From the IMG/VR virus record IMGVR_UViG_2974518066_000001, positions 32,001 through 96,000 of that record: a DNA stretch of 64,000 nt, one strand, 5' to 3'. The stretch is from a virus (taxonomy: Duplodnaviria > Caudoviricetes). Below, in pieces: positions 34,610 through 43,424 of the stretch (positions within the stretch are counted from its first letter, which is position 1; every line of letters begins with the position of its first letter). The translations under genes were made by a program, and so were the position numbers. The notes under the pieces are model-generated. The model searched no databases and was not told where the DNA came from. It worked only from the letters and a program-made list of their open reading frames with translations.

Positions 34610-34638
34610 TTGACATTCGTGAAAAACATCTCTATTAG
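34610..34638 (+). promoter_or_regulatory. sigma70-type promoter of tRNA cluster A
   Basis: TTGACA-17-TATTAG. Confidence 0.65.
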
Positions 34639-34917
34639 CACAAACACCGGCGAGGGGAACCTTGTCGGTGTTTCTGTCTCCACGGTTTTCCGAGGGGCAG
34701 GGAGGGCCGTTGAACGGGCCGAGGAGTAAGCGCCGAGCTTGGGCGCTGAAAGCCAGTCCCGGATACGGTTTCGCAGTTGTAGTCCGAGCATAGCTTCGAG
34801 CTGGTGACAGAAGGATGGGCGCTGGATTAAGCACCCAGCGTTTCCGGAATTACCACGAGAAGAACTAGCCCGCTGCGAAGGTAAGCTGACCTGTCACGCG
34901 GTAAGTCGTGGTTTCAT

Positions 34918-34995
34918 CTGGGTGTAGCGCAGTCCGGTTAGCGTGTGCGGTTCGGAGCCGTGAGGTCGTAGGTTCAAATCCTACCATCCAGACCA
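34918..34995 (+). tRNA. tRNA-Pro(CGG)
   Basis: cloverleaf; loop TTCGGAG; CCA. Confidence 0.9.
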
Positions 34996-35003
34996 TTTTC
35001 AGT

Positions 35004-35081
35004 GCCAGTGTAGCTCAGCCCGGTAGAGCAGGAGGCCCATACCCTCTTTGTCGGTGGTTCAAATCCACCCGTCTGGCACCA
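35004..35081 (+). tRNA. tRNA-Met/Ile2(CAT), atypical
   Basis: loop CCCATAC; bulged acceptor stem; CCA. Confidence 0.75.
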
Positions 35082-35088
35082 GTTCTTA

Positions 35089-35227
35089 GAGGTAACGCCG
35101 GTTCGAGCCCGGCTCGCCCGCCCAGCTGGTGATCGTCTAGTTTCGTAGGACGCCTCGCAAGGGAAACGTCGGTTCAAATCCGGCCCGCCCGTAGTTTAGG
35201 GTGGTCGTCTAGTGGTTAGGACGCCCT
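35089..35227 (+). ncRNA. two tandem circularly permuted tRNA-like modules (YrlA/Y-RNA-like)
   Basis: each unit: variable loop, T arm, loop-closed acceptor, D arm; closing stems GAGG/CCTC and AGGG/CCCT. Confidence 0.65.
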
Positions 35228-35269
35228 GTAATTCGGTCCAGGTATCCGTCAAATCGGATGGACCAGCGG

Positions 35270-35344
35270 TGGGGATTAGCTCAGCGGTAGAGCAGCCGTT
35301 TTACATGCGGCCGGTCGGCGGTTCGATCCCGTCATCCCTAACCA
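35270..35344 (+). tRNA. tRNA-Val(TAC)
   Basis: cloverleaf; CCA. Confidence 0.9.
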
Positions 35345-35346
35345 AC

Positions 35347-35421
35347 GCCTCGTTAGCTCAGCGGTAGAGCGCTGCTATGACATGGCAGATGACGGTGGTT
35401 CAAACCCATCACGAGGCACCA
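35347..35421 (+). tRNA. tRNA-Val(GAC)
   Basis: cloverleaf; CCA. Confidence 0.9.
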
Positions 35422-35693
35422 TTTTGAGACCCGAGGTAAAGGGATGTGAGGCGTGCAAGAGCCACGCGCTTTAGAAGCCCTGATCCTTGCGACGGTAGGC
35501 TCACGTCGCACCAGTTAGACCAAATCCGTGGCGGATGCTGCGGCCACCCGCGAGAGTGCGGTAACACCGGAAGGCCAGAGGGCGGTGGCGGTTAGTTATT
35601 CGAGGTTGGGCCTGTCGGACGCGGCAGGTAGGAGATCGCATAGCCCGGCTGTTAACCGGCGGTCCTATACGGACGTGTGAAGCTCCACCCAGC

Positions 35694-35768
35694 GGGGATG
35701 TAGCTCAGAGGTAGAGCACCCGTTTTGCAAGCGGAAGCGCGTCGGTTCGACTCCGACCATCTCCACCA
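35694..35768 (+). tRNA. tRNA-Ala(TGC)
   Basis: G3:U70 pair; cloverleaf; CCA. Confidence 0.92.
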
Positions 35769-35902
35769 GTTTAGGACGGCGAGTGGCCCGGTATTGGTCC
35801 GGGCATCAAATGGACTGCGGAGCGGGGAACTATCGCCTATCCCGCCCGGTCATGCGAGGACAAAATGGAGCGTGGCGCTCCTACTCGCAACGCCACACCT
35901 GT

Positions 35903-35984
35903 TTGGTAGTGACAGAGTGGTAATGTGCCCGGCTGTTAACCGGTGACCCGAAAGGCGGTGGTTCGATCCCACCCTACCGAACCA
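35903..35984 (+). tRNA. tRNA-Asn(GTT) with long variable arm
   Basis: loop CTGTTAA; extra arm; CCA. Confidence 0.8.
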
Positions 35985-35985
35985 T

Positions 35986-36062
35986 AGCGGTGTAGCTCAG
36001 CCCGGTAGAGCAACCGACCGATAATCGGTGTGTCGCAGGTTCAAATCCTGCCATCGCTACCA
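35986..36062 (+). tRNA. tRNA-Ile(GAT)
   Basis: loop CCGATAA; CCA. Confidence 0.9.
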
Positions 36063-36084
36063 GTTTCTCGAAAGGACCCGACCC

Positions 36085-36591
36085 TTGAAGAAGATGTTCG
36101 TGATGGCGGCTGCGGTAGCCTCAATGCTCGTTGCTGCCTGCGATCGACAGCCTTCTGCTGCCGAGCGCTGCATGGAGGCCAAGAACCCGCAGGAATGCTA
36201 TCAGGTGGCAAACGCTGGTGGCGACATCAACGATTACCTGATCGGTGGCCTCGGCGGTTACATGCTGGCGAAGGTCATGAGCGGCGGGCGGCAGCAGACC
36301 GTCATCGTGCAGAACCCGAATTATCATGGGCCGCGCCGATACGTCCCCAGCTACGCTTCCAGCCGTCAGCGCGTCCTCAACGGACAGGTCAAGACGGTCA
36401 GCACCACGACCACGAAGCGCGGCCTGTTCGGGTCGAAGACCACCACCACGACCAAGACTTTCGGCTCCAAGCCTGCCAGCTCGTGGGGCTCTTCCTACTC
36501 GAAGCCATCCAAGTCTTGGGGCTCGTCGTCCCGGTCCTTCTCTTCTTCGCGGTCGTCCTTCTCGTCGCGATCTTCGTTCCGGCGCCGCTGA
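36085..36591 (+). CDS. lipoprotein with Ser/Arg/Thr-rich tail, inside the tRNA array
   Basis: AAAGGA RBS; TTG start; lipobox LVAAC. Confidence 0.75.
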   Translation: MKKMFVMAAAVASMLVAACDRQPSAAERCMEAKNPQECYQVANAGGDINDYLIGGLGGYMLAKVMSGGRQQTVIVQNPNYHGPRRYVPSYASSRQRVLNGQVKTVSTTTTKRGLFGSKTTTTTKTFGSKPASSWGSSYSKPSKSWGSSSRSFSSSRSSFSSRSSFRRR

Positions 36592-36626
36592 CAATCTAGG
36601 GTTGGTGAATTATTTCACTAACCCTA

Positions 36627-36655
36627 TTGACAGTTAAAGTAACTTCCGTTACACT
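36627..36655 (+). promoter_or_regulatory. promoter of tRNA cluster B
   Basis: TTGACA-17-TACACT with GTTAAAGTAAC palindrome in the spacer. Confidence 0.8.
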
Positions 36656-36709
36656 CTCCGCATCATGAGCCAATCGGCTCTCATCAGTTTCAGAGAAAAG
36701 CTCACCACC

Positions 36710-36769
36710 ATGTTCACCCGGTTTGGAAAACGAGATCGCCGAGAAGGCGAACGAGGTTTTAGCCTCTAA
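36710..36769 (+). CDS. putative attenuator leader peptide of cluster B, MFTRFGKRDRREGERGFSL (in-frame upstream ATG at 36665)
   Basis: 15 of 18 non-Met codons are F/R/G/K/D/E, the cluster B amino acids. Confidence 0.75.
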   Translation: MFTRFGKRDRREGERGFSL

Positions 36770-36806
36770 CCGGTAGTGTGCCTTTTGCTGCCGGTGCTGT
36801 TTTAGC

Positions 36807-36882
36807 GGATCGGTAGCTCAGTAGGTAGAGCAGGGGATTCTTACTCCCAAGGTGGACGGTTCAAGCCCGTCTCGATCCTCCA
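36807..36882 (+). tRNA. tRNA-Lys(CTT)
   Basis: cloverleaf; CCA. Confidence 0.9.
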
Positions 36883-36902
36883 AGACAGCATCGGAAGTTT
36901 TA

Positions 36903-36939
36903 GACACCCTACCGGACACCCGGTGGGGTGTTTTCGTTT
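36903..36939 (+). terminator. intrinsic terminator (attenuator) after the first tRNA of cluster B
   Basis: GACACCCTACCGG/CCGGTGGGGTGTT stem plus TTTCGTTT. Confidence 0.8.
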
Positions 36940-36954
36940 GCGCTTCTCGGCTTC

Positions 36955-37030
36955 GGGCCGGTAGCTCAGTAGGCAGAGCAGGGGGCTTTTAACCTCAAGG
37001 TGGTCGGTTCAAGCCCGACCCGGCTCACCA
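36955..37030 (+). tRNA. tRNA-Lys(TTT)
   Basis: cloverleaf; CCA. Confidence 0.9.
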
Positions 37031-37038
37031 GTTTCAAT

Positions 37039-37113
37039 GCAGGCGTCGTTCAGACGGTAGGACACCTCCTTGCCATGGAGGAGACGCGGGTTCGAGACCC
37101 GCCGCCCGCTCCA
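37039..37113 (+). tRNA. tRNA-Gly(GCC)
   Basis: cloverleaf; U73; CCA. Confidence 0.9.
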
Positions 37114-37125
37114 TCATTCACCTTT

Positions 37126-37202
37126 GGTTCTGTAGCTTAGCTGGTGAAAGCGCCGGGTTGTCAACTCGGAGATCGCGGGTTCAAGTCCCGTCAGAACCGC
37201 CA
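37126..37202 (+). tRNA. tRNA-Asp(GTC)
   Basis: cloverleaf; G73; CCA. Confidence 0.92.
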
Positions 37203-37203
37203 T

Positions 37204-37278
37204 GGGGCGTTCGTCTAGCGGACAGGACGCTGGCTTCTCAAGCCGGAAGCAGGGGTTCGATTCCCCTACGCCTCACCA
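37204..37278 (+). tRNA. tRNA-Glu(CTC)
   Basis: cloverleaf; CCA. Confidence 0.92.
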
Positions 37279-37286
37279 GTTCACAT

Positions 37287-37362
37287 AGCGCCATCGTCTA
37301 GCGAGCAGGACACGTTGGCTTTCACCCTTCGGACGCGGGTTTGAATCCCGTTGGCGCTGCCA
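37287..37362 (+). tRNA. tRNA-Glu(TTC), atypical anticodon stem
   Basis: loop CTTTCAC; stem CGTTGG/CCTTCG with two U.U mismatches; CCA. Confidence 0.7.
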
Positions 37363-37388
37363 GTGAACAGTTATGAAGAGAGTTTCGA

Positions 37389-37463
37389 GCGACATTAGCT
37401 CAGCGGTAGAGCGGCGGTTTTCCAGTCCGCGCGTCAGGAGTTCGATCCTCCTATGTCGCTCCA
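37389..37463 (+). tRNA. tRNA-Gly(TCC)
   Basis: cloverleaf; CCA. Confidence 0.88.
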
Positions 37464-37472
37464 AATTCTCTT

Positions 37473-37548
37473 GGCCCGGAAGCACAACTGGACGTGCGCT
37501 CCGCTACGAACGGAAAGGTTGTGGGTTCGAGTCCCACGCGGGCCTCCA
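37473..37548 (+). tRNA. tRNA-Arg(ACG)
   Basis: loop CTACGAA; CCA. Confidence 0.88.
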
Positions 37549-37553
37549 TTTTC

Positions 37554-37628
37554 GGTGAGGTAGCTCAGAGGTAGAGCGCCGGTTTGAAAAGCCGGGCGTC
37601 GGTGGTTCGATCCCGCCTCTCACCACCA
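37554..37628 (+). tRNA. tRNA-Phe(GAA)
   Basis: cloverleaf; CCA. Confidence 0.9.
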
Positions 37629-37635
37629 GAGGTTT

Positions 37636-37992
37636 ATGCAAGACGAAATCGAACGAAAGCGACGAAACAGCGCGGCCCACTATGCGAGAAATCGGGAGGC
37701 CGTAAAGGCTAAGTCGAGGGCAGCAAAGCCTCTACGCCGAGCTGCCTGTCACCAGTTCGTCCTAGAGTATTTGCTTAATCACCCTTGTGTCGATTGCGGC
37801 GAGGACGATCCGATCGTTTTGGAGTTCGACCATCAACGAGACAAGAGCTTCGCGATTTCTGATGGAGCCCGAGCCGGGTATAGCCTCAAAAAGCTAGAGG
37901 CAGAGATCGCAAAGTGTGAGGTTCGCTGTGCCAACTGCCACAGACGGAAAACCTACCGGGAGCGCGGATTGGAAAATCGCACCATCCATTAA
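37636..37992 (+). CDS. HNH endonuclease in the tRNA array
   Basis: CVDCGEDDPIVLEFDH...KCEVRCANCHRRKT. Confidence 0.88.
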   Translation: MQDEIERKRRNSAAHYARNREAVKAKSRAAKPLRRAACHQFVLEYLLNHPCVDCGEDDPIVLEFDHQRDKSFAISDGARAGYSLKKLEAEIAKCEVRCANCHRRKTYRERGLENRTIH

Positions 37993-38000
37993 AATAGTTA

Positions 38001-38029
38001 TTGACACTAACCTATAGTTCGGTTATCAT
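38001..38029 (+). promoter_or_regulatory. promoter of tRNA cluster C; predicted start site at or next to the leader ATG (leaderless)
   Basis: TTGACA-17-TATCAT; ATG 8 nt after the -10 box. Confidence 0.8.
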
Positions 38030-38036
38030 TCGCACC

Positions 38037-38105
38037 ATGTTCACACAGACCACCTTGCTTACGCAGTGCCATTATTGGCAACTGCTATCGAGTTCATCCC
38101 TCTAA
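38037..38105 (+). CDS. putative attenuator leader peptide of cluster C, MFTQTTLLTQCHYWQLLSSSSL
   Basis: 20 of 21 non-Met codons are T/Q/L/C/H/Y/W/S, the cluster C amino acids. Confidence 0.8.
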   Translation: MFTQTTLLTQCHYWQLLSSSSL

Positions 38106-38139
38106 GGGAGTGGTTCTGACGCGCCACTCCCCGACCTAC

Positions 38140-38228
38140 GGAGGGTGGCTGCAAGAGGTGCGTAACCGGTCTCGAAAACCGGGCTGGGGTTAGGAGCCCT
38201 ACGGGTTCGATCCCTGCACCCTCCGCCA
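38140..38228 (+). tRNA. tRNA-Ser(CGA)
   Basis: long variable arm; G73; CCA. Confidence 0.85.
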
Positions 38229-38235
38229 AGTTTTT

Positions 38236-38276
38236 AAGCGTCTGCGACCACTCGGTCTCAGGCGCTTTTTCGTTTT
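38236..38276 (+). terminator. intrinsic terminator (attenuator) after the first tRNA of cluster C
   Basis: AAGCGTCTG-C-GACC/GGTC-T-CAGGCGCTT stem plus TTTCGTTTT. Confidence 0.8.
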
Positions 38277-38292
38277 GGAGATTTTGATTTTC

Positions 38293-38376
38293 GGGAGGGC
38301 TGGGCACGAGTGAGCCCACACGCCTGTAAAGCGGACGCGAAAGCTGTGAGGGTGCAAATTCCCTCACCTCCCACCA
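38293..38376 (+). tRNA. tRNA-Tyr(GTA)
   Basis: loop CTGTAAA; variable arm; atypical T loop; CCA. Confidence 0.8.
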
Positions 38377-38381
38377 TTATT

Positions 38382-38466
38382 GGCCCGCTGGTGAAATGTA
38401 GACGCACTCGCCTCAGAAGCGAGCGACCGAGAGGTCATCCCGGTTCAAATCCGGGGCGGGCCACCA
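38382..38466 (+). tRNA. tRNA-Leu(CAG)
   Basis: class II cloverleaf; CCA. Confidence 0.9.
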
Positions 38467-38471
38467 TGATC

Positions 38472-38556
38472 GGGGATGTGGTGAAATAGGTAAACGCAGC
38501 GGGTCGAGAGCCCGCCGCCTGATGGCTTGAGGGTTCAAGTCCCTCCATCCCCACCA
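38472..38556 (+). tRNA. tRNA-Leu(GAG)
   Basis: class II cloverleaf; loop TCGAGAG; CCA. Confidence 0.88.
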
Positions 38557-38587
38557 TGATTATCACGCATCTCAGATGCGCCAGAAT

Positions 38588-38661
38588 GCCCGGTTAGCTC
38601 AATGGTAGAGCTACGCCGTCGTAACGCGAGGACGAGGGTTCGATTCCCTCACCGGGCTCCA
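38588..38661 (+). tRNA. tRNA-Thr(CGT)
   Basis: loop GTCGTAA; weak anticodon stem; CCA. Confidence 0.8.
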
Positions 38662-38675
38662 TGCAGGTCTCAGGT

Positions 38676-38751
38676 GTGACCGAGGCAGAGTTGGATCATG
38701 TGCCGGGTCGTGATCCCGGATACGGCGGGTTCGAGCCCCGCCGGTCACCCC
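38676..38751 (+). tRNA. tRNA-His(GTG)
   Basis: loop TCGTGAT; C73; ends CCT rather than CCA. Confidence 0.8.
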
Positions 38752-38769
38752 TAAGCCCTGCAAGGCTAT

Positions 38770-38843
38770 TTCCCGTTCGTTCAATGGTAGGACGCCCGGC
38801 TCTGAACCGGGAGATCGAGGTTCGAGTCCTTGACGGGGAACCA
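38770..38843 (+). tRNA. tRNA-Gln(CTG)
   Basis: cloverleaf; CCA. Confidence 0.9.
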
Positions 38844-38858
38844 GATTTATCCGCACAC

Positions 38859-38945
38859 GGAGAGTTGCCAGAGCGGTAATGGGCTGGCTTGCTAAGCCAA
38901 GACAACCTCACGGTTGCGAGGGTTCGATCCCCTCACTCTCCTCCA
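38859..38945 (+). tRNA. tRNA-Ser(GCT)
   Basis: class II cloverleaf; CCA. Confidence 0.88.
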
Positions 38946-38953
38946 TCATCACT

Positions 38954-39027
38954 GCCGCCTTGGCCGAGTGGCAAGGCTCCGGATTGCAACCCCGGCATCT
39001 CCCGTTCGATCCGGGAAGGCGGCTCCA
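38954..39027 (+). tRNA. tRNA-Cys(GCA)
   Basis: U73; CCA. Confidence 0.9.
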
Positions 39028-39031
39028 TCAT

Positions 39032-39107
39032 ATCTCCAAAGCATTAAGGGGCGATGCACCGGTCTCCAAAACCGGCAAGCTGGGTTCGAGTCCTAGTGGA
39101 GGTGCCA
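39032..39107 (+). tRNA. tRNA-Trp(CCA)
   Basis: loop CTCCAAA; G73; CCA. Confidence 0.88.
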
Positions 39108-42386: not shown

Positions 42387-42869
42387 TTGGATACGGAACT
42401 TGCCTACCTTGCTGGGTTTCTTGACGGAGAAGGCACGATAGGTTTGTTCAAGACTTCTGGTGCCAATGCGTTCAAGGTGCCGTGTATTTCGGTGTCCAGC
42501 ACGGATAGGTATCTTCTGGATGCTTACGTCCATCGTTTCGGTGGACACATCCAGACCAAGGCGAGCAAACGGCCTGAAAATCATCGGCAAGCCTATGAAT
42601 ATCGCTTGCGTGGTCCTAAGGCTATTTGCGCGATTTCGGAGTTGTTTCCGTATTTACGCCACCACGTCAAGCGCGCCAGAGCGACGATGATCTTGGAGCA
42701 CTTCACCAAGATCACTAAGCGCAACGGGAAATACACCGAAGCTGAGCGCGCTATAAAGATAAGGTGGGAAGAGTTATTTCTCAGCTTGTCATCGCGAGGT
42801 GGCGATGCTTGGACAAGGGATTACCAGCAGTTCGCTGTTGGTGATGATGATCGTAATTCGGACGATTGA
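42387..42869 (+). mobile_element. LAGLIDADG homing endonuclease running into the tmRNA gene
   Basis: LAYLAGFLDGEG; AAGGAAG RBS with TTG start; lower GC. Confidence 0.85.
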
Positions 42870-43194
42870 GGACGCGCACGGACCGGGGAGCGTTACCCCG
42901 CACCTCCACCATTGCTGCTGAGCGCGAGGCTCAGAACTTCGGAGACACGGCGGTATCCAACCCGCAGGGCCTCAGTAGCATTGATGGGGGTGAAGTAGGA
43001 TCGACGTGCAAGGCTGAGAGAAGGACGCGATCGGTTTGGGTGCTGCCCCTTATGCGGTGCCAAGGCTTTAACTGCCAACGACAATGATGTTGTCACTGCG
43101 GAAGTGCGCCTCGCGGCGTAACCCGAGAAATTCCTGAGCCTTCAACAAGCTCAGGTGCGGACTGGCCCACCGAGCAACAGGACGGGCCACATTT
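42830..43194 (+). ncRNA. ssrA: circularly permuted two-piece tmRNA; tag ANDNDVVTAEVRLAA (43074-43121); outer ends approximate
   Basis: acceptor 3' end CACCTCCACCA (ends 42911) precedes 5' end GGGGGTGAAGTAGGATCGAC (42986); G3:U70; hairpin intervening segment. Confidence 0.92.
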
Positions 43195-43424
43195 GAGGCA
43201 GGGGCCGATCACAACCTCCCCTGACCGCTCGCTGTGTCCCCGCGCAGCCGTGATCGGTCTCTTCCTCAACTGTGACAAATTTAGGTGAGGAGCCGTGGCT
43301 GCAATCGCGGTGTTTTGCAGGACCGACCGACACAACTGGACAGTCCTCACCTGATCATCTCTGCAGGGTTTCCCGTTCCCTGCATGACAGCCGGGCGACC
43401 CATGTCTCCCCCGAAAGCCCGGCG

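Follow-up and report, generated by a model that had tools for sequence, protein, structure and literature searches.

What decides whether the tRNA genes of a phage are transcribed? Such genes are usually treated as passive cargo, carried for codon usage or against host defences, and the question arises here at a locus where one tRNA gene stands in front of a predicted transcription terminator and eight more stand behind it. The window analysed, a stretch of 64,000 nucleotides covering bases 32001-96000 of a virus record of 130,138 bp, has a G+C content of 60.2% and holds 24 tRNA genes identified with ARAGORN at 34918-39107 (record 66918-71107), arranged in three clusters: A (34918-36062), B (36807-37628), and C (38140-39107). 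The genome to which the window belongs agrees with that of Sphingobium phage Lacusarx in G+C content and tRNA gene count (PMC5648845; PMC9127768, Table 2). Read from its sequence, cluster B is a probable case of leader-peptide (ribosome-mediated) transcription attenuation of the trp/ilv type, here gating a phage tRNA operon, with an antiterminator that would close around an embedded tRNA; the block of eight tRNAs would probably be made only when ribosomes decode the codons of a short leader slowly.

A combination of BLAST and three pattern scans recovered 11 further distinct copies of the cluster B element (Table 1). Two come from isolated phages, Erythrobacter phages XM05 (L001) and vB_EliS-L02 (L002), and nine from metagenomic or uncultured-virus contigs (L007, L008, L017, L018, L031, L034, L036, L040, and the partial L041); L007, L014, L016, and L030 are one identical sequence and were counted once. 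When the 20-aa leader was compared with isolated phages by tblastn, the two Erythrobacter phages were the only matches, and no family member was found outside this phage group. Among the pattern scans, GAAGGC-N0-3-GAACGAGGTTTTA gave 11 new loci in viral contigs (L019-L029), all of which were chance matches within an unrelated protein gene, and about half of the matches to the other patterns were chance occurrences in coding DNA. The leader comparison below covers 12 sequences, the flank-helix folds 11, and the alignment used for pair counts and footprint folds 10, with covariation assessed from anchor-based pair tables and with RNAalifold.

The complete copies have a common layout, consisting of a promoter, a 5'-UTR hairpin, an ORF of 18-20 codons, tRNA-Lys(CTT), a terminator, and tRNA-Lys(TTT), after which, where the contig spans the block, follow tRNAs for Gly, Gly, Asp, Glu, Glu, Arg, and Phe. 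Each of the 11 complete homologues has tRNA-Lys(CTT) at this position. Lys, Gly, Asp, Glu, Arg, and Phe tRNAs recur in every homologue whose block lies fully on the contig, and the differences among blocks are minor (gene order, the Arg anticodon, which varies, and extra genes). Upstream of the leader start, at a distance of about 45-56 nt, all complete homologues carry a promoter of the form TTGAC(A/C)-17-TAnnnT, and every homologue has a 5'-UTR hairpin at the equivalent place, built from unlike stem sequences (GAGGC/GCCTC, GCGGG/CCCGC, GGGACA/TGTCCC, and others). In the window, an in-frame ATG 1-3 nt from the predicted transcription start would lengthen the leader to 34 codons (extension 36665-36709); this ATG, which lies inside the 5'-UTR hairpin and is missing from all homologues, is probably not the conserved start. 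Downstream, the first of the eight tRNA genes begins 24 nt after the terminator, and a scan for the sigma-70 consensus found no promoter between the two. An Rfam scan of 36660-36940 at E ≤ 1 returned the tRNA and no further family.

Table 1. Features of the cluster B element and of the tRNA genes that it putatively gates (positions in the window)
Feature	Position	Strand	Basis or remark
Sigma-70-type promoter, TTGACA-17-TACACT	36627-36655	+	Consensus score 10/12
5'-UTR hairpin, GAGCC-AATC-GGCTC	36667-36680	+	Predicted fold
Leader ORF, 19 codons	36710-36769	+	Start, frame, and stop kept in 12 leaders
Putative segment 1, ACCCGGTTTGGAAAAC	36716-36731	+	Pairs with segment 2 in leader-only folds
Leader hairpin, TCGCC-GAGAA-GGCGA	36736-36750	+	Nearly invariant; hairpin in shifted register in L040
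Leader hairpin, GAGG-TTTTAG-CCTC, fixing the last two codons	36753-36766	+	Predicted fold; CGAGG/CCTCG in other homologues
Segment 2, putative antiterminator 5' strand, CCGGTAGTGTG	36770-36780	+	Directly after TAA (36767-69)
Segment 2', 3' arm of local hairpin with 36769-36776	36788-36795	+	Kept in 10/10 homologues tested
tRNA-enclosing stem, 5' arm, CCGGTGCTGTTTT	36791-36803	+	Conservation, covariation
tRNA-Lys(CTT), at the tip of the putative antiterminator helix, upstream of the terminator	36807-36882	+	ARAGORN; Rfam 57.8 bits
tRNA-enclosing stem, 3' arm, AAGACAGCATCGG	36882-36894	+	Begins at the A of CCA
Segment 3, common to antiterminator and terminator, CACCCTACCGG	36905-36915	+	Conservation, covariation
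Segment 4, terminator 3' arm, CCGGTGGGGTG	36920-36930	+	94.5% of cells paired in alignment
U tract, TTTTCGTTTG	36931-36940	+	TTTT(T)C(G/T) in all homologues
Putatively gated tRNA genes: Lys(TTT), Gly(GCC), Asp, Glu(CTC), Glu(TTC), Gly(TCC), Arg(ACG), Phe	36955-37628	+	ARAGORN

The surroundings of cluster B hold further features of note for the annotation of this genome. Rfam recognizes a tRNA at 35005-35077 (41.4 bits) that was not called by ARAGORN, and the adjoining 190 nt (35080-35270) contain more T-arm-like pieces, with no tRNA called. Just upstream of the cluster B promoter lies an ORF (36028-36591) with a long, low-complexity C-terminal tail rich in Ser, Thr, Lys, and Arg, for which the sole match was weak and below the cut-off (DUF1190). 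A 118-aa ORF between clusters B and C (37636-37992) resembles an HNH/His-Me finger nuclease in its DH...N pattern and also has CxxC motifs in pairs; a comparison with Pfam gave no match at E ≤ 0.01. Further downstream, a permuted tmRNA gene (two-piece, alphaproteobacterial type; 42805-43212) encodes the tag peptide ANDNDVVTAEVRLAA, and the homologous contig L031 also has a tmRNA gene. In three homologues, tRNA-Lys(CTT) is encoded a second time, 2-4.6 kb upstream of the copy in cluster B (L001 1032-1105, L017 8880-8956, and L040 7777-7851).

At the core of the element is a terminator whose 5' arm has two candidate partners. The terminator consists of an 11-bp GC-rich stem, a 4-nt loop, and a TTTT tract, is kept in 11 sequences, and folds by itself at -17 to -26 kcal/mol. 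A preliminary description of this DNA had proposed that the 5' arm, segment 3, can pair instead with a segment directly behind the leader stop, segment 2, with one mismatch, and that a 13-bp stem enclosing tRNA-Lys(CTT) joins these two elements. Both helices were found at exactly the coordinates and with the sequences given there, and comparison across homologues bore them out, the 2:3 pairing being conserved, covarying, and stronger than in shuffled sequences. Every sequence of the 10-sequence alignment has standard pairs at 10 of the 11 antiterminator positions, and the remaining one is universally a U.C or U.U mismatch, so that 2:3 stays weaker than 3:4. Double compensatory changes were observed at two positions, A-U to G-C in L008 and C-G to U-A in the window, L008, and L034; since the latter three sequences probably form one clade, these were counted as two independent events. 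The C-G to U-A change is mirrored in the terminator 3' arm, meaning that segments 2, 3, and 4 co-vary. The other changes in 2:3 are several wobble-compatible single substitutions and, in L040, the lack of two end pairs. The 2:3 duplex reaches -16.5 to -21 kcal/mol in 10 homologues, against -6 to -9 kcal/mol when segment 2 is shuffled (p ≤ 0.002 each), and from an alignment cut before segment 4, RNAalifold predicted 2:3, the tRNA stem, and the cloverleaf without prior constraints.

The stem around tRNA-Lys(CTT) covaries as well, with several pair types at 9 or more of its 13 positions in the anchor-based table and double changes at 6 positions in the 10-sequence alignment. Folded with the tRNA swapped for a tetraloop, the flanks form one interrupted helix made of 2:3, a variable middle, and the stem, at -32 to -42 kcal/mol in 11/11 sequences. 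For the window this helix amounts to -38.9 kcal/mol and 28 inter-flank pairs (shuffled flanks -18.7 +/- 3.1 kcal/mol, z = -6.4), and it is unique among the 24 tRNA genes there, the flanks of the other 23 reaching -11.6 to -27.2 kcal/mol. Taken together, the comparative and energetic data make it very likely that the element is an RNA switch in the sense of two alternative folds.

Which of the two folds prevails was modelled with and without a ribosome. Equilibrium folding of the full-length RNA always gave the terminator, hence did not tell the states apart, and was replaced by folds of truncated transcripts. With a ribosome footprint at the stop codon, constrained folds of 10 homologues retained 0/11 antiterminator pairs, and with the footprint stalled in the leader core they retained 8-10/11. 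This is what the preliminary description had anticipated in suggesting that a ribosome at the stop hides the antiterminator and one stalled mid-leader frees it. Its companion suggestion, that naked RNA also hides the antiterminator and terminates, is not supported by the folds: in naked transcripts ending before segment 4, the minimum-energy structure contains 2:3 in every homologue, 5-14 kcal/mol better than the alternative. Heuristic refolding barriers from 1:2 to 2:3 are 5-16 kcal/mol, a range that spans fast and slow relative to the fraction of a second available and is compatible both with a kinetic trap and with its absence. The same description had segment 2 folding back into the leader ORF, capped by a TCGCC/GGCGA hairpin. 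The hairpin is present and conserved, and the fold-back itself (CCGGTT/AACCGG plus AAAAC/GTTTT) closes a three-way junction in the leader-only folds of every homologue; as a selected structure it gained no support, its energy of -9.4 to -12.7 kcal/mol being not above that of shuffled leaders (p 0.09-0.53) and cognate partners forming no better duplexes than non-cognate ones. Overlooked at the time was a local hairpin (36769-76/36788-95), in which L007 has a C-G to U-A change and which shares 5-6 nt, on its 3' side, with the 5' arm of the tRNA stem. When the RNA is folded stepwise, this hairpin displaces 1:2 once segment 2' has been transcribed, and the 3' arm of the tRNA stem then takes the hairpin's partner, freeing segment 2 shortly before segment 3 emerges.

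These folding results lend themselves to a second version of the same attenuator with the opposite default, in which untranslated or stalled RNA would read through, 2:3 forming at once on the appearance of segment 3, termination would occur only with ribosomes on the stop codon, 1:2 would have no role, and the local hairpin and the tRNA would serve as a delay for ribosome loading. Such an arrangement fits the preference of naked truncated transcripts for 2:3 in 10/10 homologues (a gain of 5-14 kcal/mol), the chance-level 1:2 pairing, and the stepwise exchange of 1:2 for a local hairpin from which the tRNA stem frees segment 2, as well as a barrier of only 5-10 kcal/mol in 5/10 homologues, the window among them. 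The other five homologues, however, have barriers of 11-16 kcal/mol, which would trap 1:2 beyond the decision window, the two states of the full-length RNA, antiterminated and terminated, differ little in energy (0-6 kcal/mol), and termination tied to a ribosome on the stop at one brief moment would leave a narrow regulatory range. On balance we regard the opposite default as unlikely, although it is the strongest of the alternatives.

The other half of the leader-peptide attenuator proposed here is the short ORF. The 12 leaders compared are 18-20 codons long and start with ATG in 11/12 cases and with GTG in L031 (AAGGAG-N8-GTG); indels within them come only in multiples of 3 nt, with adjoining non-coding spacers varying by 1-3 nt, and the stop codon lies 0-2 nt before segment 2 in 12/12. 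Their composition mirrors the operon. In the window, 15 of the 18 residues after Met belong to K/R/D/E/G/F, the amino acids of cluster B (P = 8e-5, for a background frequency of 0.372 taken from 106 long ORFs of the genome), and across the leaders the figure is 13-17 of 17-19 residues (P from 1e-3 to 4e-6). A conserved core, K-R-D-R-R-E-G-E-R-G-F, falls within this set at 11/11 positions, and four of the five changes observed in it keep to the six amino acids (an exchange or loss of D/E, an E-to-R replacement in L041, and an Arg inserted in L040), the fifth being R to Q in L034.

Codon choice within the leader gives a more differentiated picture. Minor codons recur in the window leader and make up much of its core, namely AAA (16% of Lys), CGA (16% of Arg, used three times), TTT (16% of Phe, used twice), and GGA (12% of Gly). 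The Lys codon is AAA in 12/12 leaders and never AAG, and AAA is read only by tRNA-Lys(TTT), encoded behind the terminator, being unreadable by the tRNA-Lys(CTT) in front of it. For Arg, the match between codons and anticodons is loose: the window leader contains a CGG codon with no tRNA-Arg(CCG), and tRNA-Arg(ACG) was not found in the clusters of L030/L007 and L031 (ARAGORN and Rfam) or L040 (ARAGORN only), the leaders of which keep CGA/CGC. To read CGA, tRNA-Arg(ACG) requires an inosine that is made by TadA. A tadA gene is encoded by Lacusarx (PMC5648845), so we infer that the three CGA codons would be a test for mature tRNA-Arg.

Leaders that match their own clusters were also found elsewhere in this phage group. 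The leader of window cluster C draws 19 of its 21 residues from S/L/T/H/Q/C/W, the set of its own cluster (P = 6e-9), and one residue from the cluster B set. Cluster C (38001-38276) also has a part order like that of cluster B, with a promoter (TTGACA-17-TATCAT), an ORF starting at ATG 38037, which is probably leaderless, tRNA-Ser(CGA), a 12-bp terminator, and eight tRNAs. A stem around tRNA-Ser(CGA) was considered and rejected, as the minimum-energy fold there is a local hairpin after the stop with no long enclosing stem, which indicates that the geometry of cluster B was not simply copied. In vB_EliS-L02, a third leader ORF (L002 1392-1478), rich in N/V/I/A/P/M, precedes a Pro-Pro-Val-Ile-Ala-Asn cluster. 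Upstream of window cluster A there is a promoter-like TTGACA-17-TATTAG (34610-38), and inspection of 34610-34917 by eye revealed no comparable leader ORF.

Conservation of the leader can nevertheless be read at the RNA level, since its core is almost invariant in nucleotides, third positions included, so that selection on codons is inseparable from selection on RNA sequence or structure. An element made of RNA alone, sensing no ribosome, would be a processing or maturation helix, or a leaky terminator tuned by folding or by a bound factor, with the ORF as a by-product. A helix of about 30 bp that surrounds a complete structured RNA and begins at the A of its CCA end would suit such a role, as would a leader core kept at synonymous positions along with conserved hairpins, and ribosome-binding sites are weak (most homologues have a Shine-Dalgarno sequence that is weak or 12-16 nt away from the start, and the window lacks one). 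We nonetheless consider it improbable, as it leaves unaccounted for the conserved start and stop, the restriction of indels to 3 nt, and the place of the stop 0-2 nt from segment 2, together with the substitutions and the insertion that stay within K/R/D/E/G/F and the two other leaders that match their own clusters; nor did the Rfam scan of 36660-36940 at E ≤ 1 show an RNA family other than tRNA. Least plausible is a plain terminator of a small unit of leader and tRNA-Lys(CTT), with the downstream tRNAs supplied by constitutive leak-through, expected from a U tract of only 4-5 U, or by an unrecognised promoter, given that phage-specific promoters such as those for the phage's own sigma factor (PMC5648845) are invisible to a consensus scan, because an incidental alternative pairing would not be expected to show three-way covariation among segments 2, 3, and 4 or a flank helix at z = -6.4, the next tRNA lies just 24 nt past the terminator, and the layout is kept in 11 homologues.

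In the leader-peptide attenuator that we favour, the promoter at 36627-55 would always yield the leader and tRNA-Lys(CTT), and the passage of RNA polymerase through the terminator (36905-30) and the U tract into the eight tRNA genes would be decided by segment 2. Should segment 3 emerge with segment 2 available, 2:3 would form and be extended by the 13-bp stem into the helix of about 30 bp, blocking the terminator and allowing readthrough. Ribosomes held in the leader core would leave segment 2 free, and a ribosome at the stop codon would cover it, which would amount to a negative feedback whereby slow decoding of the leader codons leads to more of the matching tRNAs. We infer leader translation, stalling, and the direction and size of the effect from sequence and modelled folds; that core stalling should give readthrough is suggested by the geometry of the elements. 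With about 135 nt between segments 2 and 3, a ribosome finishing the leader early would have left by the time of the decision, and termination would need continued ribosome traffic, pausing, or a kinetic trap. Under fast decoding, it could result from continued traffic of ribosomes over the stop, from a kinetic 1:2 trap, or from pausing.

The embedded tRNA may itself be a working part, serving as a clamp and a delay. More tentatively, the phage could be using codons of six amino acids to test translation speed and setting the output of its tRNA operon by the result, with the tRNA clamping the two antiterminator strands together and, through a delay of about 135 nt, allowing ribosomes time for the test. 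Were such a translation-speed sensor real, replacement tRNAs would be switched on when host Lys, Arg, Glu, or Asp tRNAs are depleted, for example by anticodon nucleases.

The closest mechanistic counterparts are the multivalent leader-peptide attenuators of enterobacterial amino-acid operons. In thrL and ilvL (ilvGMEDA), and also in trpL, hisL, and pheL, a promoter-proximal short ORF is rich in regulatory codons for several amino acids, and the position of the ribosome picks the terminator or the antiterminator. As in these systems, the cluster B element has a codon-enriched short ORF and a terminator 5' arm that can alternatively pair beside the ORF stop. One of them, the pheL leader-peptide attenuator, is described in PMC3082878. 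Unlike the enterobacterial attenuators, the element is phage-encoded, the genes it would gate are tRNAs rather than biosynthetic enzymes, and its leader covers six amino acids, which are those of the operon's own products. The antiterminator segments also differ in lying about 135 nt apart, with a whole tRNA gene between segments 2 and 3, rather than being adjacent, and the 1:2 pause or anti-antiterminator hairpin is not above chance here.

T-box riboswitches are comparable as transcription attenuators in which alternative antiterminator and terminator folds report tRNA status. Their targets are aminoacyl-tRNA synthetase and amino-acid genes, and they bind uncharged tRNA directly, with no translation involved, by way of a specifier loop in Stem I and an antiterminator bulge that reads the NCCA end. 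In cluster B the sensor is, by contrast, likely the conserved ORF, and the T-box model gave no match at E ≤ 1 when scanned against 36660-36940.

Among tRNA arrays, the nearest published case is the trn operon of Anabaena sp. PCC 7120, a long array induced by translational stress (PMC8421152) and placed under promoter control by the RHH transcriptional repressor TrcR (PMC10272220). Leader peptides, attenuation, and a terminator are not mentioned for the trn operon in PMC8421152. In Anabaena an accessory tRNA array is induced by impaired translation, as the phage block would be, but the Anabaena operon relies on the TrcR repressor. With respect to the long helix, the RNase III stems of rRNA operons offer a parallel, as there the 5' and 3' flanks of 16S or 23S rRNA form a long-range helix around it. 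The flank helix of cluster B similarly surrounds a whole structured RNA gene, and is unlike these stems in that one of its strands is a terminator 5' arm and the other directly follows the stop of a short ORF. In full-text literature searches, no account of tRNA genes controlled by leader-peptide attenuation came up, and the papers on Lacusarx and vB_EliS-L02 (PMC5648845, PMC9127768) mention neither attenuation, nor leader peptides, nor the regulation of tRNA genes.

This locus adds strong comparative support for a switch and a tRNA placed within an antiterminator. It is also tractable for tests, as the element is shorter than 350 nt and Lacusarx, vB_EliS-L02, and XM05 have been isolated and their hosts are named. 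With a folded tRNA at the tip of the antiterminator, tRNA folding or processing could be coupled to the termination decision. If the proposed mechanism is true, the phage would measure decoding capacity and adjust its own tRNA supply by feedback, and the logic of classic attenuation would move from amino-acid biosynthesis to the translation machinery.
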